From NCBI GenBank assembly GCA_000091205.1, contig AP006501.2: a stretch of 64,000 bases of DNA; one strand, written 5' to 3'. The notes beneath the pieces are model-generated. The model had not been told where the DNA came from. It saw only the letters and a program-made list of their open reading frames with translations, and did no database searches. The position numbers were made by a program, and so were the translations under genes. Shown piece by piece: positions 1,873 through 59,175 of the stretch (its first letter is position 1; the number at the start of each line of letters is the position of its first letter). Source of the DNA: Cyanidioschyzon merolae. Lineage: Eukaryota.

Positions 1873-2868
1873 ATGGTACCGGCGGGCACCCAGCAGGACT
1901 TTGCCGAGCAGGAAAACGTTTTGGTATACCACGGGCCCCTACTCTACGAGGCAAAAGTGCTTGAGGCCCTGGAGAGCCGTACAGAACCTGGAGCTCGTTG
2001 CTACTTGGTTCACTTCATCGGGTGGAATCGCTGCTACGACACCGTCGTCTCTCGAGAGGCAGTGCTTCCACGGACGTCAGCCAATCTGGAACTTGCTGAA
2101 CAACTTTATGTGGACTTTGTGGAAAAGCGCGGACCTGCTGCCACTGCTGCTGTTGAAGCAGCATCGCATACAACGCAGCGAATAGAGCGTGTCGCTCAGG
2201 GTAATACCGAAGCACCCCTGAGCGCGTCTACGACAGGATGTGAGTCGGCTATCTCCGCTGCTCATGTGCGTAACGATGAAGTTGTTATCGATGGTGAAGA
2301 TGATGTTGACGAGCACGTCGCCATCTATAACTGCCGGGGGCTGCGATCGATCCTAGAACACGTGGACCCAGACGATCCCCTGAGATGGTTCGAGTTGCCA
2401 ACGGTGCTGAAACGTACCGTTCTTGACGATTTCGAATACGTTTCCGAAAGTGGACGACTCTATCCTTTGCCAGCCCAAGTGACTGTGGCAGCCATCCTGC
2501 ACGCTTGGGTACGACATCGAAAGAGGACCCAGGATACGGATGCTGGTCAGATCCGAGCTCTTGCAGAGAGTCTCCAGCGCTATTTCAATGAGGCGCTGAG
2601 CAGCATGTTACTCTATGAGGATGAGCGACCGCAGTACGCAATGGTGACGACGTCGCATCCGGGAAAGCGTGCGAGTGAGATCTACGGTGGAGAGCATCTT
2701 CTTCGACTTATGGTGAAGCTGCCGTGGTTCCTCGAACAGTTGCCGATCACCAGAGACGAGGTTCGTCAGTTTGCACGCCTTTTCCAGGACCTCTGTCGCT
2801 TTTTGTTGCGCAATCATTACAGATTCTTTTCCGTTGTCGATGGAAGCGCCCTGGAGGAAAGCAGGTGA
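1873..2868 (+). CDS. MRG/chromodomain protein (MRG15/Eaf3 family)
   Basis: N-terminus VLVYHGPLLYEAKVL...YLVHFIGWN matches the MRG15 chromo barrel; C-terminal MRG domain. Confidence 0.8.
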   Translation: MVPAGTQQDFAEQENVLVYHGPLLYEAKVLEALESRTEPGARCYLVHFIGWNRCYDTVVSREAVLPRTSANLELAEQLYVDFVEKRGPAATAAVEAASHTTQRIERVAQGNTEAPLSASTTGCESAISAAHVRNDEVVIDGEDDVDEHVAIYNCRGLRSILEHVDPDDPLRWFELPTVLKRTVLDDFEYVSESGRLYPLPAQVTVAAILHAWVRHRKRTQDTDAGQIRALAESLQRYFNEALSSMLLYEDERPQYAMVTTSHPGKRASEIYGGEHLLRLMVKLPWFLEQLPITRDEVRQFARLFQDLCRFLLRNHYRFFSVVDGSALEESR

Positions 2869-4065
2869 AGTTGATTTCGTTCCGATGATGCCCGACGAGG
2901 CAGCATCGGAATCGAAGAGATCAATATGGCTGCAGCACGTGCGCTCTTCCATGCTTGGTGGCCGCATCCAGGGCAAATGCACTTCATGGAATGCAGTAGC
3001 AGCGAATAATACATCATAAAATAGGGGATACAGTATCTTTCATGCTTGACGGGGCACGGTATGCTAAAGTCTCGATTGCAGAATGTTTTCTATTCGACAG
3101 ACGTGCACCGTCAGAGAGATACCCTGAGCAAGCTCACAGTCCGCACCACCTGATCCCTTGGCCTGACTATAGTAGCCATCAGAGATGGTCGGGCAACTTT
3201 GTGATTGTTTGACTCGGAATAATGAATTCTGAAACACCTGCATCAGCACGCCCTGTTTGTTTTTTCTACGGGTATTCAAGAGGAGTGTATCTTGCACACC
3301 GGAGAAAGGTCGCCGAACGACCTTATGTCGTCACTGCTTCCTCATGAGAAAGCCCGCTTTACTAGTGCACGGCAGACATTCTCCGGACAGCCTCGCTTCA
3401 CACACGAACAAGGCTCTCTGCAAAAAGAAGCCCTTTACAGCAATGCAGACCCGTCCCGGACTCCGAGCGCCCTCGCGCCCCCATCACTGGCATCGGGGTA
3501 CGACGGGCACCAGGCGGCACACCGGCATGTAGAGTGACGGTGCAAGGACCGTTCTCACCGGCCTGCGTAGCGTATCCAGCAGAGGCGCACGCCTTCTCGG
3601 CTTTATTCAGAGGTCGTCCGTGAGCGTCCAGACGTCTCATGCGGACGCTCTTCGGCATGTATGCATGAGACTGCGCTGGGCGGTCGCCAATGGTTTCGGT
3701 TGTACGCAGACAAGACGGGTGCGTTCCCCAAACGGCTCAGTGACGTGGGAAAGGAAACGACTGAGCAGTCGCGTCGTCCGGTGGGGAGCCCCATCGAGCG
3801 GCACCCGACGCGGCGCACGAGGCCTGTGATCCCGCTTCATCGACCGGAGCTTCCCGCGGGAGCAAGCATCGACGCTGCACTGTGCCCATCGATGCGTTCA
3901 GGGCGTTATGCAAGCGGCACCAGCACGGGCACACGCTGAGGCGGGCACAGAAGAAGAGCGCGAAACATGCGCGCTCGGATGCACCGGATGGTAAGCGATA
4001 AGCAGCGTGCACGTCAGACGCAGAGCCAATCGCAAGTAAGCGGCTCGATATCGCGTGATCCAGCA

Positions 4066-4381
4066 AGCAACCATGCGCGCAAGCACTCTCTGCATCACGA
4101 CTTTAATGCCTCGAGCGACATCCGCGAATGTCCGGTACTTCCAGAGCATCCAGTGAGTATTACGTCGAGCGAACCTTGCGGCAATCGTTTGGTACCCAGT
4201 GGGCGCATTCTGCTGCAATGCTGCGGACATCCGCCAAACAGAATACGAATCCATGGGAGAGCGGCATGTTTTGCCTTGGCGGATCACGGCACTGGTGTGG
4301 TGCTGCTCAGCAATGCGGAAAGCATTGAGCGCGGTACGGATACTCTGGGGACGATTTGCGTTGGCAATATCTGAAAGACAA
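4066..4381. repeat. Direct repeat copy 2 (partner of 1-316)
   Basis: ~96% identity to window positions 1-316; diverges after ...gacaataatgtttc. Confidence 0.85.
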
Positions 4382-5363
4382 TAATGTTTCCATGTTCGGT
4401 GTTTCTGCTTGTATACAGGTCACGTCTTTTTCTTTGTTCGCGATTCGCCCAGTATTCATGCGGTATGCCAATGAAAGCAACTGGATCATCGAGTCAGGTA
4501 CTCGCGGAAGCCGGTCCAAGAAAACAGAGACGAGCTGTTCTTCGACATGAACAAGGCTAGGATCTATCACGTCGCTCTGTATGCTCCTACCTGTGCTCTG
4601 CTTGATGACGACACGAATACTGCCAAACATGGTATTCGAATGTTGCTCAACCTGCTAATTGCACTGGAAGTACGCGAACGTTCCCAACAAACCACATGAT
4701 GCCCTGAGGTTTAGCTTGTATATGTTGAACATGATATTTAAGTCGCATTGCTCAGCGTGTTTCGCAAAGATTTGGTGCGCTTTTGTCCGAATCGGCTGAA
4801 GGATCACGTCCCCGAAAACGTCACGAGTGAAAACTCGGTACGGAGGCACGCCCATGCTCGCGCACGGTACGGAGAAGGCGGGGCTCCCGACGCGTGGCGC
4901 CCTCAGGAGCTGCACAGTAGGCTGGCGTCAGTGGAACCTCCTGTTTCGGGCGCAGTCGTCATCGACGTCACCCTCGGTGATATAGCGTATCACTGATGAC
5001 GGCACTAGCTATCTTTGGGGTCGATACGGGCACGAGTGCAGAGCTGGAATCATCAAGACGCCCTTCAACCAGCGCGAAACGATCCCAGCATTCTATCTGT
5101 TGGAGCGCTCCACGCCCAGGGCCAACTGCATCCGGCACGCGCGCCGCTACGCCTACATTGCTAGTGTCCACGAATGCATAGTGCCGCGCTTACCAAGCGA
5201 TGCCTTCATCCAAGCAGAGTATTTATTGGAGTCAATGGTGCCATGAGTCCCTGTCGCGTTTGTACTGTAGTGCTGACACCCCAGATTATCAGTACTCTCG
5301 TAGGTGCTGCTCGACCAGCATCCATGGATGAACAGTGACGCACGAACCAAGTACCGTCTTGAT

Positions 5364-6950: not shown

Positions 6951-8649
6951 TCGCGCCGACGCGCTCGAGTCGGTGACTTTTTTCGCTCACCAAACGTTTA
7001 TGTTGTACCTGGATCCCTTATCGCGGGACGAGAACTGGCTATCGGGAAAGCGCCCATCGTGATACGCCTCACCCTCAAGTTCCATTCCTTACAATTCCTT
7101 TCGGATGTACTGGTCGTTTCATGGGTTGTATCGAGCATCGAGTGCCCGTCGTGCTGCATCCACCTTGGCGCCTAGACAGCTGGTGCAGATGCACCTTAGA
7201 GACAGAACGGCTTTGCTGTACCACTGGGGGCTTCGGCTCGAGATGTGGTGCACCTGACACGGATTCGGAGTCCATCATCATGCTGGGGGCCTGGAAACTG
7301 CGCTGAAAGAGCTACCGTCTGCGGCAGCTCGAAGCGACATGCCGGGAGTCCACTGCGACCAGGGCGACGCCCAGACGCAGCCTAACTGCTGCTCCTAGTC
7401 CCAGAGTCGACTGCGTTGCGGACGAGGTGTTCAGGTCGCACCACTGCACTAGGCACAGGTAAGGGCGTGAAGCACTAGTCTTGCAGACTCGTTCGGATTG
7501 CGGGCCGTTTCGCCCTGAAGGCAAACTTTCGGAAGTATGGAAACCTTTTCGCCCTTTTAACGGCTACCGTGGAATGGGACAGGAATCGTTACATCGTTTC
7601 TCGTGAATCGTTCGTCTCTTTCCTTTTTTTCTCCGAATAGCGCGGTCGATAAGCACACCTGCGAGATCACGCAGTCACGAGAGACGACGCGCATGTCGCC
7701 GATGAAGGGAAACGCGTTTCTAACTATGCTCTGACCTATTGCCCTACCGTACATGTTGTATTCGAATTACAGGCGTAGCGGAGTACAGTTTTTTGAGTTC
7801 AATCGCGTTTGAAACGTCAAGTAAGCATATTCAAGTGATGCTGTGCGGTGTATAGGAGAAGCGTTCAATGTGCGTTCTTTCGCAGAAAAAATTCTAAAAA
7901 AAGGAAAGTTATGAGAAAGCAAGTCGACGATCGCGGAGGCGCAGTGTCGCCGGCTGCCAGAAAAAGAACGAAAAACGGTGCCGAGCCCAGGAGCACAGGC
8001 AAAGACGATGAAGCAGAAGCGGGAGGCCCTACGTCAAAGGCCGCGGGAAAGACAACAGTACGACGAGACGGTGGTGAAAGCGTACCTTCGTAAACATATC
8101 AAGGATGCCTACAAGGAAAAGTTGCGAGAGGCCATCAGAAACCGTGTCGAGTCGTACTCCACGAGTACGAAGAAGGCTTCGTCAGGACTGATGCATATGG
8201 TGAACGAGATGCACGACAACGCGACGGACACCAGAACAGTCGAGGTTCCGGGGGAATTTTTCAACAAGACCTTTGCTCGTCACCTGATGGTCGGCACAGG
8301 GGAGCCGTCGACAAACAATGAGCGAGTGCACGCCTTCCACGAAAACTTCGCGGGATTCGGCTTCGAAGGTGCATCGATACAAGGGTTACGGGGATATTCA
8401 CATCTACGGGCCGATCGAGTACCTCGCGAACCTGAGGAACCATTTGACCATGAACCTCGAACGTTTCATGATACGCGCCGTGTTTGCGCTCTACCGGGGC
8501 ATCTCTCGCGGGGAAGAGATGGGCCATCTTCGCTGCCATCACCAACGATCGTCAGCATGAACAGGCAATAGAATTTGTCGACAAGATGACATCACGCAGG
8601 AGCATGAATGAAGCATATGTGATCGGTGCAGCTATTCAAGAGCGTCGTG

Positions 8650-8777
8650 GTAACACGGAGGTAGGGGGTTGGATAGATACTTCACCTCGCACTGAAAAAA
8701 TATCACAAAAAGTAAGAAAAGTAAAATGCGCATAATCGGAGAACGCTGGCCCAAGTAAACGTTTTGTCCATGGAAAA
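8650..8777 (-). mobile_element. ~130-bp MITE-like repeat, here called R2, nested inside copy A
   Basis: Absent from the orthologous position in copy B. Flanked by 12-bp direct repeats aagagcgtcgtg (8638-8649) and aagagcatcgtg (8778-8789). Homologous to 20355-20469 and 39066-39250. Confidence 0.7.
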
Positions 8778-9271
8778 AAGAGCATCGTGAAGTCTTGGGG
8801 CTGGCCAACCCGACAGAAGACGTGTCAGATATGAAAAAAGTGAGAAAAGATGGTACCCCCGCATCCTGCGCTACTTCGTGTTTCTGGACCGAGAACTCGA
8901 ACGCAAGGCGGAGATGGTGCTGGGTGTGTGGAAAAATGAAGAGTCGCGGAGACGGAACGCTTTCCCAATGGGGAAGTGCTTCAACGTGGTTCCAATGAGC
9001 AACATCAAGTCACATTTTGTGACTATCGACCAAGGCGTCCACTACGGCAACATGAGTGAGATCAGTCCGGTGTTCGGTGTCAGCAGGGAGGAGTTCACCG
9101 GTGAAAATCGGGAGACGTACCGGAAGAGTCTCTTCGGTTTCAAACGTCTCAAAGTGAGCAAGCAGAAGGTATTCACGGGGATGATCGGAACCGATGGCGT
9201 AGCCACGTGTGTACGCTATCGGAGGTTTGAAGGCGGATTGTCCAGTTCGGCCTTCGATATCGCCCGTAACG

Positions 9272-9421
9272 AAGCATGAAGAAAACAGGGAGGAGGATCC
9301 TGCCACACAGAAAGTGCAGGATAACGACTTTGTCGTTGACGCGACGAAGCGTGAAGATGAGATGGAGGCGGGTCCTGCTACGCAGAAAGTGCAGGATAAC
9401 GACTTTGTCGTTAGTGCGGAT
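9272..9421 (+). repeat. Tandem 66-nt repeat (two units) encoding an acidic [19 protein letters not shown] motif immediately N-terminal of RuvC-I
   Basis: [20 protein letters not shown] / [18 protein letters not shown] in A; four units at the same place in copy B. Confidence 0.7.
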
Positions 9422-10425
9422 CCCGGGAACACAAATATCATAACCATCGCAGTACCCAAGCGTGCGGAAGATGGTATCAACGGCAACCTACGTCAGACGG
9501 CCCTGCGAGTTTTGAGGTTCTCGAGAGCGGGATGCTATCGAGAATCCGGTATGATCAATGTGAGGAAGAAAATTGAGACACGGAATGCAGGAATGAAGGA
9601 TCTCCTGGAAGCTTTGCGCGGAGTAACGAGCAGAGGAGCAGGCTTTGAAGCTTTTCCGATATTCATGGAAGGTCGCGTTGCTCATTGGGATGCGCTGCTG
9701 GAGGAGTATACAAAGCCCCGGTGGGCTCGTCTGCGTATGAATCTGTACGGTGGTAAGCAGCGGGCATTCGCCAAATTTTTCAGTCAGTTGAGTGCCTTGA
9801 AGGAGGACGAGAGCCAGAGGCTGGTAGTGGCATACGGAGCAGGGCGTCCACAAAAGGGTGCACACCAGCTCCGTCGACGAGAACGTACAAAGCGTGTGCA
9901 CGGCGCTTTGTAATGATACCGATTGATGAGCTCCGAACGTCCTATACACACCACGAACTGGGGTACACACTTGAGACGGTCGACATGGAAAAGTGCCAGC
10001 GGAGTCCTGAAGATATGAAAAAGTATGGAGCGCTAACGGAGGAGCAAATGGACAGGAGGGCGAAAGTTCGTGGACTACTCGCATTAGTAAGTACAATCAA
10101 TGGCAAGAAACGCATGGAAATTGTTAACCGCGACTTTAACGCGGCTACCAATATAAGGAGGTGCGCGGTGATGGAGAGAAGACCTCCGTACTTGACAAGA
10201 GGGAATTTCGTAGGGAAACCTCTCGAGGTGGAATTATACGAGAAAAAGTTGAAACCGGTAGTAGGTGGCCGGTCCAAAAAGAATGTGAGGCATCTGCACG
10301 TCGACTGGAGGCGCATTGTCGAAAGCGCGCCGCGCTCCCGTTAAGCGCCAGTGCGCAGAAGAATTTCCTTCGGTTTCGAGGTATATTGAGAAGGGTCGCG
10401 TTCGTTCTGTGTAGAAAGCTGGACT

Positions 10426-13371: not shown

Positions 13372-13794
13372 ACACTGTAAAATGTTGATGAAACCTCGCT
13401 GTGAAGTCGGATGGCTTGATTCAGGGAACAAATCCCTTGTACAGCGTCGCTGTCGATATCGAAGTGGTGCCTCATGATCCAGAAGCAGGAATGCAGCATC
13501 AGCGGACCGTTTCACGTGCCACCAACTACACTACGTGCACATGAGGCAGCTTTGTGGCGGGGGTTTTCCAGCGCCGTCCGCGATCGCTACCAACGGTATG
13601 CCTGCTGCGCACCGGTAAATACCAACGCAGTAGGCTCAGCTGTGTTCGCTATAGCAGTGGTACCTTTTTGGGCAGTATCATTGAGAAATTCCTGACCACG
13701 GTGAACGCGACGGCTGCGTGTCGCCGTGAAAGCGTCGTATATTTGGACAGTGCGAGTAGGAAACTCACGTGTGCAAAACGAGGTATATACGTAT

Positions 13795-13908
13795 GGGAAT
13801 GCATGCATGCATGCATGCATGCAAAAACACGTGTCTATGCGAATGAAAGCACGCATGGTATCGAAGCTTTTCACGTATGTGAGTGCATGCATGCATGCAT
13901 GCATGCAC
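13795..13908. repeat. Two blocks of (GCAT)n microsatellite in a convergent intergenic region
   Basis: gcatgcatgcatgcatgc at ~13795-13831 and ~13881-13908. Confidence 0.9.
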
Positions 13909-14090
13909 TCACAAACGCGTAGCCATAAACATAAAAACCAATAACACTGAGGTCTACATGATTTTACCGCAGCGGCTTCGAGGCTATCGGCAAGCGCAGC
14001 AAGTCGTAGCGGTATGCACATGGTACATAGCCACAAAGCGCGGTATCAGCACCGGCTGAGACGAGAGCTGCTTTCGCATGCCCTTCTCTC

Positions 14091-19404: not shown

Positions 19405-19557
19405 ACGGCTGTTGCCCTGCGCGTCCTATTGTACGTTCCCAGGGCGACACGTCCCGCGAACCCCGCTGGCTCACAGAAGCAGAAACCGGAGGGGTGCGCT
19501 CCACGCTGCCGGATCCGCCTCCGCGTCGAGCACATCGCTGCGTTTTTGCTCAGTTTT

Positions 19558-19813
19558 ACAGAATGTTTCCATGGACTAGGGATACCAGATTGCGGGATGG
19601 ATATTGGCATTCGGGAGTGTGCCCATCATGATGCAACCTATGCTCAAGTTCCATGATGCATACTTTTTCTCGGGGGTGTACTGGTCGATTTGAATGTTGT
19701 ATCATGCGGCGAGTACCTGCCTTGCTGCAGCCGCTATACCGCCTATACCGCTGGTGTGGATGCAACCTAGAGACAGAACAGTTTTGCTGTATCGCAGAGG
19801 GCTTCGACTCGAG
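19558..19813. repeat. Inverted repeat, left arm (partner 24333-24578, ~95% identical)
   Basis: Reverse-complement identity seen directly; the spurious ORFs 19556-19765(-) and 24372-24782(+) translate identically. Confidence 0.85.
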
Positions 19814-19831
19814 AATGTAAACTTAACCTTC

Positions 19832-20545
19832 TCAAAGGCGCCTCTCGGCCTTTTTCGACCGGCCACCTGCTATCGGATTGAGTTTCTTTCTGTGCATATC
19901 GAGCCTGAGAGGCTGGCCCACAAAGCTGAATCGCATCAGCTCCTGGGGTCTCGTATCCAATACCGCACATGGTCTGATTTTGATGACGACGTTGAAGCCT
20001 CGATGCACAAACTCCATGCGTTTCTTTCCTCTGATGGAACGCAAAAGTGCTAGGATTCCGAGAACTCGCGACCTCTCTCCGATTCCAATCGCGCCATCGT
20101 CCCACAGGGCAAACTCCTTTTCTCGCCCATCTCCCTGTTCTTCTTCTTCTTCGTCACTTGCCCTTCTTCGCTCGATCGTCAGCGATGAGAGGTGTTTTCC
20201 CCTTTTTTCGTCTGCCAGCAATAACCACCAACCAGGATTCCCGACTTTTATGTCCATATCCTTCCCTTAGATTGTCACCTTCGTCAAAATGAACGCACTT
20301 TGCGTATATCTGCTATGAGCGGAGAATAGACCTTTGATGACACGCACTTGCAGGTTTTTTCATGGACAAAACGTTTACCTAGGCCAGCGTTCTCCGATTA
20401 TGCGCATTTTTCTTTTCTTACTTTTTTTGTGTTATTTTTCCAGTGCGCGGGAAAGTATCTGTCGAACCGCACGCACTTGCAGGTGGAACGCAATTGAGTT
20501 GAACGGTCATGAGCGCAGCACCTGGACGCCGCTTCCGCTGCGCTC
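19832..20545 (-). mobile_element. Copy D of the Fanzor-like family: internal-deletion derivative (5' ~250 bp joined to 3' ~300 bp) with a nested R2 insertion
   Basis: 5' region homologous to A 7790-7960 (..VGNPGWW.. versus VGDPGGP / DDRGGAV). 3' region KKRMEFVHRGFNVVIKIRPCAVL...GGRSKKAERRL. 3' terminus ggccggtcgaaaaaggccgagaggcgcct at ~19843. Confidence 0.7.
20355..20469 (+). mobile_element. R2 MITE-like repeat inserted into the 5' region of copy D
   Basis: Flanked by a perfect 14-bp direct repeat cacgcacttgcagg (20341-20354 and 20470-20483). Fanzor-like homology resumes on the far side. Confidence 0.7.
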
Positions 20546-23879: not shown

Positions 23880-24332
23880 TCGCCATGCGCTGTGGAGTCG
23901 TCACAGAGAAGGACAGGCACTGCCCATTTACTAATTGCGACTGTTCCAAATGAAGACAAGTCGCCAGGAACTAGCAACTAGATAACATTTCGTTCCACCT
24001 TCATGGTAAGCGTTGCAAAAGGGGAACTTTTTCCGTATTTTCGAAAGATTACCTTCGAGGCGGAAAGTCCCTCGCGCCAGACGAGTCTGCAGGGTTGGTG
24101 CTTGAAGCTATTCCCAGCGGCGGGTACAGTGCCGAGACCTCATTAGCTCGTCCACAACGCAGTTATTTTGGGACTTGGGGCGCCAAGGCTGCATCCAGGT
24201 ATTGGCTTGGTCGCAGTGGTCCCCTAACATATCGGTCCGTGCTGTCGCAAGCAGTATTTCTGGCTGCGCAGCTTGCAGGCTCCCAAATTGATGTTGAGTC
24301 CTGATTCTGTGACTTGTGAACCATGACGCGAG

Positions 24333-24578
24333 TCGAAGCCCTCTGCGATACAGCAAAACTGTTCTGTCTCCATGTTGCATCCACACCAGCGGTATAGGCG
24401 GTATAGCGGCTGCAGCAAGGCAGGTACTCGGCGCATGATACAACATTCAAATCGACCAGTACACCCCCGAGAAAAAGTATGCATCATGGAACTTGAAAGT
24501 AGGTTGCATCATGATGGGCACACTCCCGAATGCCAATATCCATCCCGCAATCTGGTATCCCTACTCCATGGAAACATT
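24333..24578. repeat. Inverted repeat, right arm (partner 19558-19813)
   Basis: Reverse complement of 19558-19813. Confidence 0.85.
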
Positions 24579-25258
24579 CTGTCAACCAAAAGAATCGTCG
24601 TGCGGTCGATTGGCGCGCTGGGGCGCTACGAAGCACGCATCGCATGTCTTGCGGGATCGAAGCGTCCAGCCAGGAATCCCCTCAGTGCGCACTTGACATC
24701 GGCAGCGGAGGCAAAAACCACCGCTCCATTCAAATCCAAAGCTCCCTGGTTCCATCACTCACCACCAAATAACCCGCCATGAAGCATCCCGATACCTATT
24801 GCGTGCCTCGTGGTCCCGTTGCATCGTTTGCAGATGCAGGATCGAGACATCGACCGAGATTCCCCGGCGGATGCGCGATTGCTCTCAGAAACCACATGAT
24901 AGAGCACCGCTCCATCCGAAACACCTCAAGTTCCGCAAACCCTGGGCCAGTACGCAACAACGGACACTGGGATTCGTTCCGTTCAACAACATGGGTCCTT
25001 CCAGGTATCGCGCACGCCTCAGGCGCTCGCTGTGACACAGTGCATGGGCCTGCACCACGCGGTTGCGCGGCGGTTGCACGCGCACCGAGGCGCCCCGACG
25101 AGCGCCGACTCGGCGATTCTGGATGCGTGCGCTGGTGTCGCATTCTGCAGCGATGCATCCGTGCCCTGGGCCTCGAGACACGTGTCCGGCATACAACATG
25201 CATGCACGCATGCATGTTGCACAGCGCCAAGTTTGGCATAGCGCGGGAGCTGCTCTGA

Positions 25259-35279: not shown

Positions 35280-35785
35280 TAGAGACGATAGCGTGTGTGT
35301 CTGTACACCGATTTGCAGACGCCCCCCCCCCCCCCCGGGTTTTGCTCTAAGGGCCCCATGCCATCGGCTTTAGTTTCTTCTCGTGCACCTCGAGCCGGAG
35401 AGGATGTCCAACAAAGCTTGATCGCCTCAGCTCCTCGGGTCTTGTGTTCAGCACCGCACTTCTCCGGATATGGATCGCAGCGTTGAAGTCTCGGTTCACG
35501 AACTCCATGCATGTATTGCCGCTGTGGTTGAATTCACCAATGCAAGGGTTGATAGGACTCGTTCCCTCTGTACCAGTACAGTCTCGTCATCTACCCGTCA
35601 GGCAAACATCTTTTCTGACATATCTCCCCTCTTCGTATGCTCATTCTTCCTGCTCTTCTTCGCTTCATAGTCGACGAGAAGAGGATATTTTTGAAGCATC
35701 CAGCGATGATGACGGCCCTGCGGGATCCCCGACTTGCAAGTCCATACCTTTTCCTTGGATTTTATTTGCACTTTAAATCAACGCA
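35280..35785 (-). mobile_element. Copy F: internal-deletion derivative of the Fanzor-like family; contains a C16 tract
   Basis: 5' region aaaatccaaggaaaaggta...gtcggggatcccgcagggcc homologous to H and A; 3' region is diverged RuvC-III-like (antisense frame IAALKSRFTNSMHVLP); poly-C at 35322-35338. Confidence 0.55.
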
Positions 35786-36167
35786 CTTGGAATGCACCTG
35801 CTGTAACTCATGAAACCGCTTTTGATACCAGGCACCTGGATATGGAACACCATCGAGTTGATAGCCTAGAATCGGGGAATGGATCTCAGGGCAGCCGCCG
35901 TCGCCGCCGCTGCCGCCGCTGCATCGATCCACTCTCAGCGCAGCGCAGCAGCAGGGCGATGCAGTGCTCATCTGCAACCTCCGAAAACGTCCTACAAGGT
36001 GTTGCGTGAAGTACACGAGCACCTGTTTATCCTGGGGAATTTTCGAGGCAATCGATAGGTGTTTCTTTTTGGGGGCGGCTGCTGCGGCGATCGCTTGCTT
36101 TTTCATAGCGAGCACGGAGAGGCAGGGCTTGTCATCGGAGGGTACCGCTTGCTCCGCCCCCGTCACA

Positions 36168-36719: not shown

Positions 36720-39056
36720 ATGAATATGGTGAACTAGGTGTTTGCTGTCCGTAACGGTCACTCGTTGCTGGACCCCGCCAAGTAGGATGCGTTGGTGTTG
36801 TCGCTGGTGCGGCCAGCGCGCGACGCTCGAGAAAGCTGCACCAGGAAAAGCCCCTGAGCGATCGGAGCACATGGAGTATACCGCGGGTACCTGGTACGGA
36901 GCGAGAGCGCGGACCCCGCTGTGGCTGTGATTCGGGAATCAAAAAACGAATGCGGCCTTTGGTAGGCAGAGGTGACTTGTACCCAGTGAACGACTGTGAG
37001 GAATTTTGGAATCTGCTGAAGCATCGGAGGCACGCGGCGGACGCCCAGCCAGGACGCTGTGATGTCTTCCTCGTGCGCCATGGAGCGGGCGTGTGCGAAT
37101 GAAAGCGTCTAATCCGCTCCTATATTCGATACTTGGACGACTATTTCAGGTCTTTGTTGTTGTACGCAAACGTCACAGTGGTTTGAAATGTGCGCGCTTG
37201 CTCGTTTCGAGCAATGTCGCAGTGGCGAGCATGTCCGATCTGGAGCATTGCCCGATGCCCGGGAGCGTTCTGATCGCTCGATCTCTGCTACACGTTTTTG
37301 TTCTGAAGCACCGCTTGCGCTCGCAAATGACCATGAGGAAAAAGGGTCCTCTACGGCCGGTCTTGAACGACGCTGGTGCTTTCGATTCCCGCAGAGACGT
37401 CGTACTTTCGAATCTTTCCTTGTGACAGGTCGCGTGCGTGACGAACCGTGTAGGAATGGGATTTCGATCCAGATGATCAGCTGCGAGAGAACACAGTCTG
37501 AACCCGACGTCCGATTCATGACATTTCCCTGGGTGCTTTGCAGAGGGCTCGGCCCAGCGTCCAGTTCAAGTTCGATGCGACGGCATCGCGCATTCCTCGC
37601 AGTTCTTGGCGAGATGGGTCATGCCAATGACAGCAGCAGCAGTAGCTGCTGCTGCTGCTGCTGCTTCGGCACACACGGTAGATGCGATGGTGAAGAGGAA
37701 TCCTTGCCTGAGCGCCTCTGCAATGAGCAGCGTCTGAAGCGGCGTTGGCTTCGTTCCAGAATGAATGCGGGCGAAGCGGCGGCATCCGTGGTTCCCGTCG
37801 CAGCATTTGCACTGCTCTTCGGAGACGATATCCATTGAAGCTTCATCACGATCATGATGATCCAAGAGTTTTGTTTTGTATCTCTGACGCATACGCATTG
37901 TCGAGCGCTGGCTCTCGTGCGAGTTCGAATTTGCAGCACTAGATCGGCAGAGCATGTCTCGTCTTCCACAAGCGCCCTGCTATTGCCAAGGCTCCATGCG
38001 GCTTCTTTGCGTTCTCTGTCAAAGAGGCGCTCGCTAGATCACCGCCAGCAATGTAAACTTGGTGTTTGGTGTTGCGACTCTAATGAAAACTAGAGGCGGC
38101 CACAAATCGCTGCACAGAAAAGAGGGAAAGCGTGTCACACTGGTGCGACCCGTGTGCTGCCGGATAGCGCCCGAAGACACAGTATCCTGGGAGGCTGCAC
38201 GAGCCACCTCACGGTTGCCAAGTGTTGCGGAAACGTTCGCGATGTGTACTGGAGAGAATTCGACGACTCTGCCAAACACGACTTTTCGTGGATGCTTATG
38301 CGTCAAAATGCAACCGCCACTTCCCTTGAGCCGCCTCCGAACGACGCAACAGCATGTCAGAGCGCCCAACGATCCGCATGCCCTTCTTTACCTACAGCAA
38401 GTGCGCTGTTCCTAGGAGGTCTGTTCGCGGATAGAACCAACGTCTTGCAACCAGATTCATACGCTGCGGTCAACAGCGCCTAGCAAAGGATACTCATGAA
38501 CTTGTGTGAATGCCAGCACCAACTCGTTACCAATGTCTTTGCGCGAACCAAGAAGTCCTCCTAAAACCAAACCCAAATGCGACTGTAACCCACACCCAGT
38601 GTAGAATCCTTAAATCCCCTCTTTACCCGCAGCAGCCCGGCAGTGATCAGGGTCCTTCTCGCGAACAAGCGCAACTCTGCCCAAAAAGAGCCCTTCTTCG
38701 ACGCTAGACTTGCCTCGCAGACATAAAGCACGCACCGGCCACAGTTTCCCCAGCAGCTTTACTAGATCAAGGCGGAGCGCCACAGACACCAGTTCAATCG
38801 ACGTCCTAGACGTACATATTCCATGCGAACACCTCTTCCGTATTTTACAGTGCTCCAGCTTTCGACTATGCTACCGCGAACCTTACGGATTTGCACACGC
38901 TCCCCGTATCCACACAAAATCCTGCCAATAATATCACACATTCATCTACGCCCTGCTTCGATTCATCGATCCTGCACCATCACCAATAAACACGAAACAA
39001 ACGAGAGAAACCTGCATGCCGCTGATGAAAGCGCCCCACAGGCACGGAAGCGAATC

Positions 39057-39260
39057 CACGCGCAGGTTTTTTCATGGACAAGACGTTCACATAGGCCAGC
39101 GTTCTCCGATTATGCGCATTTTTCTTTTCTTACTTTTCTTGTGTGTTTTCTTTCAGTGCGCGGTGAGGTATCCATCAAACACCCGATCTCCAACGTACAT
39201 TACCGATACCTCTTCTCGGATATTCTGGTCGTTTCGTATCCGCATGCAGATCAACGCCAC
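39057..39260 (+). mobile_element. R2 repeat, longest copy (~185 bp)
   Basis: ttttttcatggacaagacgttcacataggccagcgttctccgattatgcgca...; flanked by ccacgcgcagg (39057) and ccacgcgcgg (39251). Confidence 0.55.
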
Positions 39261-39398
39261 GCGCGGCTGCGCTCTCGGATCGATCCGCTGTGGACGGCGC
39301 GAAACGGCGGCACCCGGCGCAGCGCCACCATAGCGGAAGGGGCGAACGCACCGTACCCCAAGTAGGATACCGGGGGCCTCCTTGTTGCGAACAGCGGC

Positions 39399-43075: not shown

Positions 43076-43197
43076 CGCATTCGTGCGTGCGCGCGCGAAT
43101 TCGTGCTTGTGCGCGCGCATTCGTGCGTGTGTGCGCGCTCTCGTGCGTGTGTGTGCGCGACGTAACGCATTCGTGCGTGTGTGCGCGCCTAGCGGCG
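43076..43197. repeat. ~6 tandem copies of a ~20-bp unit (attcgtgcgtgtgtgcgcgc) abutting the 3' terminus of copy B
   Basis: Seen directly: cattcgtgcgtgcgcgcgcg aattcgtgcttgtgcgcgcg cattcgtgcgtgtgtgcgcg ctctcgtgcgtgtgtgtgcgcg acgtaacgcattcgtgcgtgtgtgcgcg. Confidence 0.8.
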
Positions 43198-43204
43198 ACA
43201 TCTT

Positions 43205-45797
43205 TTTCATTGACAAAACGTCTCCAACTGACGTGCAGGCGCCTCCCAGTCTTTTCGGACCGGCCACCCACTACTGCTTCCAAATTCTTCTCATATAGTT
43301 CCACTTTGAGAGGTTGTCCAACAAAGTTCTCCCGTGTCAGCTCTGGAGGTCTATTCTCCAGCACAGGACATCTCCGTATATTGATAGCGGCGTTAAAGTC
43401 TCGATTCACAAACTCCATACGCTTCTTGCCGTCATTGGTTGTACTCACTAATGCAAGGAGTCCACGAACGTTCGCCCTCCTTTTCATTTGCTCCTCCGTC
43501 AGCGGTCCGTACTTTGCTATTTCCTCAGCGCTCCGCTGACACGTTTCCATCCCCACTCGCTGAAGTGTACATCCCAGTTCATGGTGTGTATACGATGTTC
43601 GAAACTCATCTATCGGTATCGTAACGAAACGCCGTGCACACTCCTTGTACGTTCTTGTCGTCGGAGCTGGCGTAGTTTTTTTTGGGTCTTCCAACACCCT
43701 GCCCTATACGCTACTGAGAGCCTCTGACTTTCATCCTCTATGAGGGCACTCAACTGATTGAAAAAGTTGGCAAACGCCCGCTGGTTACCACAATACAGAT
43801 TCATTCGCAAACGAGCCCATCTGGGCTTTGTATACTCCTCCGGCAGCGCATCCCAATGGGCAAAACGAACTTCCATGAATTTCCGGAAAGCTTCAAAGTC
43901 CGCTCCTCGGCTGGTCACCTCGCTCAAAGCTTCCAGGTGATCCTTCATTCCTGAATTCTACGTACAAATTTTCTTCCTCGCATTCATTATACCGGATTCT
44001 CGATTGTATCTCGCTCTCGAGAACCTCAAAAGGCGCATGTCTTTCTGACGTAAGTTGCCGTCAGTACCATCTTCCGCACGCTGCGGTGCTGCGATGGTGA
44101 TGATATTTGTGTTTCCGGGGTCAGCGCCAACGACAAAGTCGTTCTCATGCACTTTCTGCACCGCAGGACCCGCCTCCTTCTTTTCTTCATGCTTCGCCGC
44201 GTCAACCATAAAGTCGTTATTCTCCATCTCCTGCGCCGAAGGATCCGCCTTCTTCTCATCTTCATCCTTCGCCACGTCAACGACAAGGTCGTTATCCTCC
44301 ACCTCCTGCGTAGCAGGATGCTCCTCTTTGTTTTCTTCATCCTTCGTCACGTCAACGACAAACTCGGTATCCTCCACCTCCTGCATCACAGGATCCTCCT
44401 CTTTGTTTTCTTCATCCTTCGTGACGGGCGCGGCCGAGGGCGGGACTGGCCCATCTGTCTTCAACCGCCGGTGGTGTACACACATGGCTACCCCATCGAT
44501 TTCGATCAACCTAGTGAATACCTTTTGTTTTGCTCGAATTGAGAAGTTTGAAATCGAAGATATTCCCCCAGTACGTCTCACGGTTTTCACCGGGGAACTC
44601 TGTCTTCCTTACACCGAACTCCGGACTGATCTGCCTCATGATGCCGTGAAGGACTGCGGAGTCGATAGTCACAAAATGTGACTTGATGTTGCACAACGGA
44701 ACCACGTTGAAGCGCTTCCCCATTAGGGCAGCCCTCCGTCTCTACCACTCTTCATTTGTCTCTTCACTCAGCTTCATCTCTGCCTTGTGTTCGAGCTCTC
44801 GGTCGAGAAACACAAAATATCGCAGGAGGAGGCGATAGTATCTTTCCTTGTCTTTTTTTCAACTCTGATATCTTGTCTGTTGGATTCGCCAGCCCCAGTA
44901 CCGCACGATGCTCTTGTTTAGCCACACGGATTACAGAAGCTTCATTCGTGCTCTCGTTTGGCGCCTTCTTATCGACGAATTCGACCTCATCTTCATGCTT
45001 GCGATCGTCCGTGATGCCGTTGGTAATCGCCCGTACGCCTTTGCGATAGATGGCCCGGTACGGCGCACACACGGCGCGTATCATGAAACGTTCGAGGCTC
45101 ATCGTCAATTGGTTCTCCAGGTTCGTGAGGTACTTCATCGCCCCGTATGTGTAAATATTTCCGTCACCGCTGTATCGATTATCCTCGAAGCTGTAAAAGG
45201 GATGTTTTTCATGGAGGGCATCCACTAGCACATTTTCCTTCCGCGCTTCTGCTGTACCAAGCATCAGCTGTCGAATAAAGGTCTTGTCCAAGAAATCGTC
45301 CGGAATCTCGACCGTTTCAATATGCGCCACGTCTTCGTACATCTGCCTCGCCAAATGCATCACTCCTGACGACGCCTTGACAATGCTCTTGGAGTACTAG
45401 TCGACAAGTTTTTCGATAGCGTCTCGCAACTTTTCCGTGTACGGATTCTTGATATGTTTAAGAAGACCAGCTTTCACCACCATCTCGTCGTACAGTCGTC
45501 TTTCTTGCCGCCTTCGACGTAGGGCCTCCCGTTTTCGGTTCCTCTTCTCTTCTTTTTCTTCTGGACTCGGCACTGTTTTTTGTTTTTTTTCTAGCAGCCG
45601 GCGACCCTGGGCCTCCAGGATCGTGGACTTGCTTTTTCAAGACTTTCCTTTTCTAGTTTTTTTGGAAAAGAACGCTCCTTGAACCCTTCTGTTATACGCT
45701 ACGAAAAACACTTGACTAGACTTGTTTGAGGGTTGAAACACAAATGAACTGAAAACTTTATTTTTGTTCGAATCCTACGCGAATACAACTTTTACAG
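43205..45797 (-). mobile_element. Copy B of the Fanzor-like RuvC nuclease element, ~2.6 kb, frameshifted
   Basis: ORFs 45458-45640, 44764-45363, 44511-44723, 43958-44590, 43610-43948 and 43008-43697 on the minus strand. Ruv[20 protein letters not shown] (Asp ~44121). RuvC-III EFVNRDFNAAINIRRC (Asp ~43399). 5' terminus gttgtattcg shared with A. Confidence 0.8.
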
Positions 45798-46585
45798 CTG
45801 AACATCACGCTAGAGATCAGGATCGCGTTTTCCTTCAACGGCGGCATGCGCATCCTGTCTCATGCTTGCCTGATCTCCCAGGAACGCTCATTTAGCGCAC
45901 TGCGTGCACCGCGCGAGACGCCTCACCGATCGATGAAGGACACGTGTCCGACACCCCGCCTTGGCACATGCGTGTTCGCATCGCGCTGGAGCGAAAATCA
46001 AGTGTCCTAGATCGTGAACTCACGTAGAACGATCTCTTGCTGTAGGCTCTGTCGCTGGTGCCGACGCTACTGCCCATCGCAGTACCGTCCTGACATACAA
46101 GGGGATGCAGGGGCCTGGTACGATACCCGTCGACGCGTCTATCAAACGCGTAGCGTTCTCTGCGGCTTACGCTTGTGCGGATGAGATATGCATCACTCTA
46201 CTCATTAGAAATTTCGTTACATTTATTGATCGTAAACAAACAAGGTACGGTAGTGTTCCCCAACACGGATACAAGTTTATTTCATTTGCTTGTTATACAT
46301 GCCGCACGGACGCTGGAATAAGGAACTAACCTGAATTTTGCTTCCACCCGGCGTCACGGGCTGGAACTGATGGCGCTTCAAGTCATTTCCATGCTGCTGT
46401 CGTTGTTCAACTTATGGTGCCTGCATCGTCCTCCGGATCCGGTGATCTTGGCCGAGGCATACCACACATATAGCGTCCAGATCTGCCACGACGTTTGAAC
46501 ATTGCATCTCGCCTGGCATGATCGACACGCTTGAGAAAAGCGCATACTGTATTCTGGTCTACTCTATCAGATTATATACAATTGC

Positions 46586-58349: not shown

Positions 58350-58440
58350 TTGGGTGGCGCTCGATTCGCGCGCGATGAGGCACCCATCGTTCCATCTACT
58401 TCCAAGTTCCATAACCCATACTTCTTCTCGGATATTCTTG
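58350..58440 (+). repeat. Partial R2 repeat (3' part)
   Basis: gcgcgatgaggcacccatcg...ccatacttcttctcggatattcttg homologous to 39160-39230. Confidence 0.45.
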
Positions 58441-58574
58441 TTGCTTCACGTCTTGTTTTGTGCAGCGAGTGCTTGCAGTGAGCTCCCACGATAGCACCTA
58501 TATCATCGGTGCGGTCGTTGCACAGAAGCAGGACGGGTTTGTCGTACCACAGATGGCGTCGGCACGAGCGGGTA

Positions 58575-59175
58575 GACTGATACCCACGCACAGGCGCCTC
58601 GCAGTGTTTTTTGACCGGCCCTCTGCTATCGGTAGTAATGCTTGTCCGTGCACGTTTCGAGTCTGAGAGTCTGTCCCATTAAGTAAGATGGCCTAATTTC
58701 GTCAGCACTCGTCTTCATCCCCACACATCGTCTGATATTCATGGCGGTGGTGACGTCTCGGTTCACGAACGCTATTCGTGCATTGACACTGATTGAACGC
58801 ACCAATGCAATGATTGCTAGAACTCGCGTACCCAGCGCCACTGACGCCTTGTTGTCGCCCCATTCTACAAATACCTTTTCTCGTGTCTTGCCCTTCTTCT
58901 ACTTTTCATCGTCATTTGCGCTTCTTCGGTCTATTGTCGGTGGGAAGAGGCTTTTTTCGTTTTCTTCCTGCAACCGGCGATGGTGGCCCTCCTGGATCCC
59001 CGACTACCATGTGCGTACGTTTTCCTTGGATTTTTTTTGTTTCATCAAATGAAGACACTTCGAATGCATCCGCTATACACCGCGAAAAAGCATTTGATGA
59101 CATACACATTGACCTGGAACTCCATTTATGTGAAGGACTGTAATGATGGCGCTGTCGTGGCGAACGCTTTGCTTG
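58575..59175 (-). mobile_element. Copy H: internal-deletion derivative of the Fanzor-like family (5' ~280 bp + 3' ~320 bp)
   Basis: 5' region ggtgtatagcggatgc...gtcggggatccaggagggcc...cgccggttgcaggaagaaaacgaaaaa (VGDPGGPPSPVAGRKRKK) aligned to A 7830-7960. 3' region IAFVNRDVTTAMNIRRC...ggccggtcaaaaaacactgcgaggcgcctg. Confidence 0.7.

Follow-up and report, generated by a model that had tools for sequence, protein, structure and literature searches.

Short repeats nested in Fanzor1 copies of Cyanidioschyzon merolae are very probably truncated tails of a LINE retrotransposon

Introduction

What kind of element leaves a short insert inside another mobile element and duplicates 12 to 14 bp of its target? 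The question is raised by a 64,000-nucleotide stretch of contig AP006501.2 of Cyanidioschyzon merolae (hereafter the window), in which copies of a short repeat, here called R2, lie within or near longer Fanzor-like repeats. Two ORFs of the window encode proteins (ThrRS and DadA) identical to those of C. merolae 10D, and the stretch is assigned to chromosome 19 of that strain. A preliminary description, made from the letters of the window, regarded R2 as a MITE-like family, considered the duplications at its flanks unusually long and raised a possible preference for insertion into the Fanzor-like copies.

The Fanzor-like copies in the window belong to the Fanzor1 family CMe-1A (Bao & Jurka, PMC3627910), which is the WSV486-like, 3.2-kb repeat of about 250 copies to which Nozaki et al. 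attributed about 5% of the genome (PMC1955436). CMe-1A has no transposase and no terminal inverted repeats (TIRs). Its first 635 bp are 95% identical to another repeat, TE-N2_CMe; both are unclassified and were listed without target-site duplications (TSDs) (Bao & Jurka 2013, PMC3627910). Nozaki et al. (2007, PMC1955436) also reported 26 non-LTR retrotransposons in the genome of C. merolae.

Results

R2 copies in the window and their target sites

Three R2 copies are present in the window at the places first described, and they share a 24-nt core, CCAGCGTTCTCCGATTATGCGCAT, which has exactly three occurrences there (8726-8749 on the minus strand, 20384-20407 and 39096-39119), all of them exact matches, where shuffled sequences lead one to expect none. 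Copy A occupies 8650-8777 (128 nt), copy D 20355-20469 (115 nt) and copy C 39067-39256 (about 190 nt). Each is read here as a 5'-truncated 3' end of the LINE described below; in the sense of that LINE, copy A lies on the plus strand, with its A-rich tail at 8774-8779, and copies D and C lie on the minus strand, the tail of copy D being at 20355-20360. The copies are 85-89% identical in pairwise comparison and have a common end, TTTTTTCATGGACAAAACG..., in which a T-run of variable length is followed by CATTGACAAAACGTTT. Their opposite ends differ: length increases from D through A to C, and copy A equals copy D plus 17 nt.

The surroundings of the three copies are not alike. Copy A is inserted in a Fanzor1 (CMe-1A) element, itself designated copy A, in which the gain of 140 nt shifts the reading frame; this host was already degenerate, and the insert adds a further frameshift. 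The host of copy D is a Fanzor1 derivative with an internal deletion, and copy C is intergenic, 143 nt (39257-39398) 5' of a gene for a DAO-type oxidoreductase. All three copies are inert relics.

On either side of copy A lies a 12-bp repeat, aagagcgtcgtg upstream (8638-8649, plus strand) and aagagcatcgtg downstream (8778-8789, plus strand), the two being identical at 11 of 12 positions. In the Fanzor1 paralogue copy B, the corresponding site (44904-44915, minus strand) holds a single AAGAGCATCGTG and no insert, as had been noted from the outset, and the 12-mer of copy A likewise occurs once, at positions 1630-1641, in the published CMe-1A consensus. The 14-bp repeat around copy D, cacgcacttgcagg, is perfect (14/14) as described; one unit adjoins the T-run on the tail side (20341-20354, plus strand) and the second lies at 20470-20483 (plus strand). 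Two paralogous sites on the plus strand each carry a single, diverged version without an insert, CAGGCACCTGGATA at 35829-35842 and CATACACATTGACC at 59101-59114. Because these paralogous sites are empty, copies A and D are real insertions with TSDs of 12 and 14 bp, and the flanking repeats are duplicated target rather than terminal direct repeats belonging to the element, an alternative that the preliminary description itself had named. The flanking repeat reported for copy C is less secure: ccacgcgcagg (39056-39066) and ccacgcgcgg (39257-39266) agree at 10 of 11 positions with an indel, a match no better than that of control repeats, and they are possibly a degraded TSD.

The insert is present in six orthologous metagenome contigs at the copy A locus and in all ten that were seen for the copy C locus, and copy D, together with both of its TSDs, was also found in metagenome contig L003. 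Among these contigs no presence/absence polymorphism was detected; every orthologous allele of copies A, C and D is filled, which gives no sign of recent activity.

R2 insertions in metagenome contigs

Public metagenome contigs were scanned with a 20-nt piece of the R2 core, which returned at least 120 stretches and revealed at least about 45 distinct insertion sites in C. merolae populations. Nearly all of the matches listed came from hot-spring samples in which contigs with about 99% identity to the window are likewise present. The T-run end is present in every R2 copy among the matches listed. The run is about 3-9 nt long, varies in length and composition from site to site, even between orthologous alleles, and is often interrupted (TTTCTTTCTTTTTT, TTTTCCCTTTTTTT). 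At the other end, homology between non-orthologous copies ceases 41 to more than 800 nt beyond the core, and the stopping points cluster near 255-262 and near 617-622 nt; the truncation points at the metagenome sites listed range from about 70 to more than 800 nt and reach into an open reading frame (ORF).

A TSD directly abuts both junctions at 24 non-redundant sites among the matches listed. The median length is 13 bp and the range 9-27 bp, with 21 of the 24 duplications measuring 11-15 bp, so that the 12-14 bp seen in the window hold for independent insertions as well. Of 80 control windows displaced by 150 or 300 nt, 79 gave a best repeat score of no more than 8. The insertions also show a strong target bias, CGAT^G: the duplicated target has CGAT at its end and G follows after the junction (from position -4 to +1, C at 17, G at 19, A at 15, T at 21 and G at 20 of the 24 sites), and the opposite boundary is without preference.

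R2 is contiguous with a reverse transcriptase gene

Long members of the family extend from R2 into coding sequence. The long copy L028 contains an ORF of 370 aa that matches the Pfam reverse transcriptase (RT) family RVT_1 (E = 1.5e-18) and includes the motifs FIDFQKAFDTVPH, GLRQGD and LLADDVVLL; a CCHC-type C-terminal region comes next, and then about 590 nt of untranslated region (UTR) with R2 at its end. This ORF lies on the strand opposite to that on which the T-run is read, which places the RT upstream of an A-rich tail. Two further long copies at unrelated sites (L094 and L031/L039) are collinear to about 1.2-1.3 kb and contain the same ORF2 CCHC C-terminal region, also on the opposite strand; their available sequence ends short of the RT domain. 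A LINE contig fetched independently, L126, encodes an RT at 2940-4271 (RVT_1, E = 3.2e-22) and a C-terminal ORF at 4347-4970, and its 3'UTR runs into R2 at 5199-5358, the last 160 nt. The end of this 3'UTR is 87% identical to copy A and 83% identical to copy C.

The solved structures in the PDB that are closest to the RT are those of R2 (the protein of that name, not the repeat family treated here) and L1 ORF2p. The RT is 85-91% identical to proteins of C. merolae 10D annotated as 'retroelement, alive', and the genes for these proteins are presumed to constitute the autonomous family behind the R2 tails. The published count under that annotation (PMC1955436) covers RT-bearing copies only and leaves short tail fragments like R2 undescribed; no description of the short repeats as LINE tails was found in the literature on non-LTR retrotransposons of C. 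merolae. For an endonuclease domain, no Pfam match was obtained in the ORFs of L126, the one long copy available, or of close relatives. By eye, positions 1648-2064 of L126 may contain a remnant of an APE N-terminus with its first two motifs (SWNICG...KETQ), after which an internal deletion follows.

Because long family members run into an RT gene upstream of the A-rich tail, we conclude, with a probability of roughly 0.93, that R2 forms the 3' terminus of a LINE 3'UTR and that the short copies are dead-on-arrival, 5'-truncated products of target-primed reverse transcription (TPRT). This process classically leaves a fixed A-rich end, truncation of variable extent at the opposite end and TSDs of variable length. 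What was originally read as the R2 start (TTTTTTCATGGAC...) corresponds, in reverse complement, to the A-rich 3' tail of the LINE. A TSD of 12-14 bp would be long in a DNA transposon but is normal among LINEs, and its apparently unusual length is explained by the LINE origin of R2. The R2 copies resemble 5'-truncated TPRT copies of the L1 type in their A-rich 3' end, variable 5' truncation, lack of TIRs and contiguity with an RT ORF whose C-terminus is of the CCHC kind, and their TSDs are likewise variable (about 7-20 bp in the L1 type). They differ in the target, CGAT^G as against TTTT/AA in L1, and in having a short tail of about 3-9 A with frequent interruptions.

From the anatomy of R2 and established LINE biology we infer an RNA intermediate and an order of nicking, and the following scheme may be proposed. 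An endonuclease of the LINE would nick one strand, preferably at 5'-CGAT^G-3', and the exposed 3'-T would serve as primer on the A-rich end of the LINE transcript. Reverse transcription would then proceed through the 3'UTR and usually stop or fall off early, which would give the variable far end. Cleavage of the second strand about 13 bp away, followed by fill-in, would produce a TSD of 9-15 bp with a mode of 13 bp.

Related LINE tails in the window and in Fanzor1

The repeat at 58350-58440, previously listed as a partial R2 copy, belongs to a sister subfamily, R3. Its fragment spans 58384-58568 (minus strand), corresponds to positions 71-255 of the CMe-1A consensus (taken from Additional file 2 of PMC3627910), which are an antisense LINE 3' end, and is 73% identical to R2 over 78 nt. 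Three further R3-type fragments match CMe-1A positions 1-620 at about 78%. The first, at 6984-7604 (minus strand), forms the first 620 bp or so of Fanzor1 copy A (CMe-1A positions 1-620). The second, a tail of 260 nt at 19558-19817 (minus strand), ends at CTCGAG, a hot spot at which 5' ends recur, and shares 97% identity with an inverted copy at 24329-24585. The third, 620 nt at 23964-24584 (plus strand, in LINE sense), matches TE-N2_CMe, that is, CMe-1A positions 4-620, and a CGAT target adjoins its tail. The inverted pair at 19555-19811 and 24329-24585 was also considered as the 257-bp TIRs of a 5-kb transposon; the interior consists of host genes (for example, one for a DUF1499 protein) and contains no transposase, and each arm is a LINE-tail fragment in its own right.

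TE-N2_CMe and the first 620-635 bp or so of CMe-1A carry the terminal motif GACAAAACGTTTAC... as R2 does and are collinear with R2 over about 260-600 nt, but they are only about 65-70% identical to it, and R2 contains an extra T-rich block. R2 is a sister subfamily of TE-N2_CMe and the 5' part of CMe-1A (R3). When reversed, CMe-1A positions 70-534 align with L126 at 4809-5266 (65% identity, E = 5e-46). At the protein level, the match between the C-terminus of the LINE ORF2 and TE-N2_CMe is weak (22 aa, E = 0.006), and the LINE assignment of TE-N2_CMe therefore rests on the DNA-level match. On this evidence, TE-N2_CMe is a 5'-truncated LINE 3' end that lies antisense in CMe-1A. The published CMe-1A consensus appears to be a composite of a LINE tail and a Fanzor unit. 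Copy B begins at CMe-1A position 646, without the LINE tail, and the Fanzor copy in L126 aligns from about position 648, with weak similarity that may extend further upstream.

Discussion

Our results indicate that R2 is the tail of a LINE, and the other accounts of R2 differ in how much of the evidence they can accommodate. The strongest of them holds that R2 is a SINE-like retroposon, in which a short RNA from the LINE 3'UTR, with a 5' end of its own, is copied by the LINE enzyme. Its basis is a shared start: 8 of the 41 sites among the matches listed begin at one 5' end (..GGCGTCGGCTCGAGG|), about 290 nt from the tail and with different TSDs, and the fragment at 19558-19817 has precisely this start too (CCTCGAGCCGACGCC, read in LINE sense). 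Random truncation alone would not predict such a common end, which therefore counts against random truncation as a full account. However, the window copies (115, 128 and about 190 nt) and most of the other sites end at scattered positions, the longer copies are continuous with the RT ORF and a pol III-type head is lacking; neither ARAGORN nor Rfam gave a match to a tRNA, 5S or 7SL head in the window or in L126. For R2 as a whole this account is improbable, and a SINE-like short RNA is possible for the subset with the common 5' end only.

One-ended DNA transposition by a rolling circle is considerably less probable still. It was suggested by CRe-1, CRe-2 and CRe-3 of Chlamydomonas, which carry Fanzor1, are truncated at one end and have TSDs of 7-19 bp, and for which Helitron2-type transposition has been proposed (PMC3627910). 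This pattern of one intact end, one truncated end and variable TSDs is very similar to that of R2, and the Fanzor1 consensus of C. merolae itself has R2-type sequence at its 5' end. The ends of the CRe elements, however, are shared with Helitrons and insertion occurs after TTTT, whereas the conserved end of R2 is an A-rich tail of variable length, is shared with an element whose long members encode a non-LTR RT and not Rep/helicase, and is found at CGAT^G.

A MITE-like, non-autonomous DNA transposon moved by cut-and-paste with TSDs of 12-14 bp, the class originally proposed for R2, now has very little probability. Such an element would be short, non-coding and repeated, as the copies of 115-190 nt are, and their TSDs are real and have empty counterparts. 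The class has nevertheless to be abandoned: copies A, D and C have no TIRs, conservation is confined to one end, the opposite one breaking off at dozens of different positions, TSD length varies between 9 and 27 bp, the conserved end is an A-rich tail 3' of an RT ORF, and no transposase is associated with the family. That R2 is an introner-like element, spliced out as an intron, is next to impossible: on the plus strand copy D is exactly bounded by GT...AG (20354/20482) and so is copy A (8650/8780), the excision of which leaves an in-frame +9 nt, but exact GT..AG excision is available at only 3 of the 25 sites among those listed, against a chance expectation of about 11%, and other frameshifts had already disrupted the Fanzor copies that serve as hosts.

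As the tail of a LINE, R2 displays a textbook signature in a genome already known for non-LTR retrotransposons, and alone the result matters little. It removes a false lead, since there is no novel DNA transposon with unusually long TSDs, and it provides the LINE with a target preference (CGAT^G) and a distribution of TSD lengths. It also assigns a class to repeats left unclassified in the literature, namely TE-N2_CMe and the 5' part of CMe-1A. This assignment matters for the true ends of the C. merolae Fanzor1 and hence for its guide RNA and target-adjacent motif.

The relation of R2 to Fanzor1 has two sides, nesting and possible structural coupling. The preference for Fanzor-like copies raised in the preliminary description survives as a slight excess: the Fanzor part of CMe-1A lies no more than 200 bp away at 6-7 of the 41 sites among the matches listed, these being copies A and D in the window and the copies in L031/39, L118, L047 and L015. 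About 5% would be expected if insertions were even, and roughly double if selection removes genic insertions. Because selection against genic insertions in a gene-dense genome can produce it, the excess needs no targeting, and the enrichment is at most weak.

It is the structural coupling of LINE tails with the Fanzor1 family that we regard as the thread of interest. Amplification of Fanzor1 might be driven in part by the LINE RT through chimeric or transduced RNAs, and not by a DNA transposase, with CMe-1A structurally coupled to the LINE; we consider this unlikely, though less so than any of the alternatives for R2 discussed above. Against it, the 620-bp tail is absent at that position from copy B and, it seems, from the copy in L126, many Fanzor fragments retain the opposite end, and copy A as a whole is bounded by no TSD, a search around it and around the older R3 fragments having given nothing above the control level. 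In its favour, the CMe-1A consensus opens with about 620 bp of antisense LINE 3' end. In addition, a mini-Fanzor made up of CMe-1A positions 786-999 and 2819-3088 is fused to a sense 260-nt LINE tail twice in the window, at 19558-20356 and at 58384-59142.

LINE tail in the published Fanzor1 consensus

The first ~620 bp of CMe-1A, the published Fanzor1 consensus, correspond to TE-N2_CMe, which is carried as 'unclassified' in the literature (PMC3627910). These ~620 bp match the 3' region of the LINE on contig L126 (4809-5266) in antisense, with 65% identity and E = 5e-46, and the alignment indicates that they, and hence TE-N2_CMe, are an antisense LINE 3' end. Because its start matches in this way, the published consensus appears to be chimeric, with a LINE tail joined to a Fanzor unit; in copy B of the window, the Fanzor unit begins at about position 646 of CMe-1A. 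Fragments of this CMe-1A-start/LINE-tail type lie at window positions 6984-7604, 23964-24584, 19558-19817 and 58384-58568.

A recurrent internal-deletion form, which we call mini-Fanzor, fuses CMe-1A ~786-999 to ~2819-3088. At 35331-35872 it occurs without a LINE tail, and in two composites (19558-20356 and 58384-59142) it is followed, ~25 nt on, by a 260-nt LINE tail in sense orientation. As the composites share 66% identity across 712 nt, it was the composite as a whole that was duplicated.

The large Fanzor1 copies, A (7900-10330) and B (43212-45901), are both degenerate, with stop codons and several reading-frame switches, and the RuvC-III-like motif NRDFNAA(T/I)NIRRC is still legible in them. 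Copies A (9269-9412) and B (44125-44424) have unequal numbers of a 75-bp coding tandem repeat. The 3' end of copy B is directly adjoined by a 20-nt tandem repeat, CGCATTCGTGCGTGCGCGCG (43076-43185).

A shared 5' end and derived structures of the LINE tails

In a metagenome scan with the R2 core, 8 of 41 independent insertions among the matches listed began at one common nucleotide, ~290 nt from the tail, the boundary falling at the end of ...GGCGTCGGCTCGAGG in the orientation that reads the tail as a T-run. This 5' end occurs at metagenome loci L124, L109, L085/L088, L034, L041, L106 and others, and at 19811-19817 in the window; the target-site duplications differ among all eight insertions. 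The hot spot could be a pause site of reverse transcription, or it could reflect a discrete short RNA.

LINE-tail fragments at 19555-19811 and 24329-24585 form an inverted pair with 97% identity. The ~4.5-kb segment between them is flipped in one ENA metagenome contig (L003, 203-1700), opposite to its orientation in the window and in contigs L001, L002 and L004. Either recombination between the paired fragments has created a polymorphic inversion, or the flip was introduced in assembly.

Tandem arrays derived from R2 were also observed (L120, 5300-5900; L071, 2850-3350; L025; L021/L040/L055). One type has a ~113-116-nt unit comprising a truncated tail and the TSD-like ATCCATCGATCC, another a ~150-nt unit that includes CTAAGAAGGTCTCGGATGGATG; these are minisatellites that arose by expansion of LINE-tail fragments.

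Other repeats in the window

A 350-bp direct repeat (1-350 and 4067-4416; 93-96% identity, 4 kb apart) belongs to none of the R2, LINE and Fanzor families and is not related to them. At 13788-13917, downstream of the isoamylase gene, is a palindromic (GCAT)n block.
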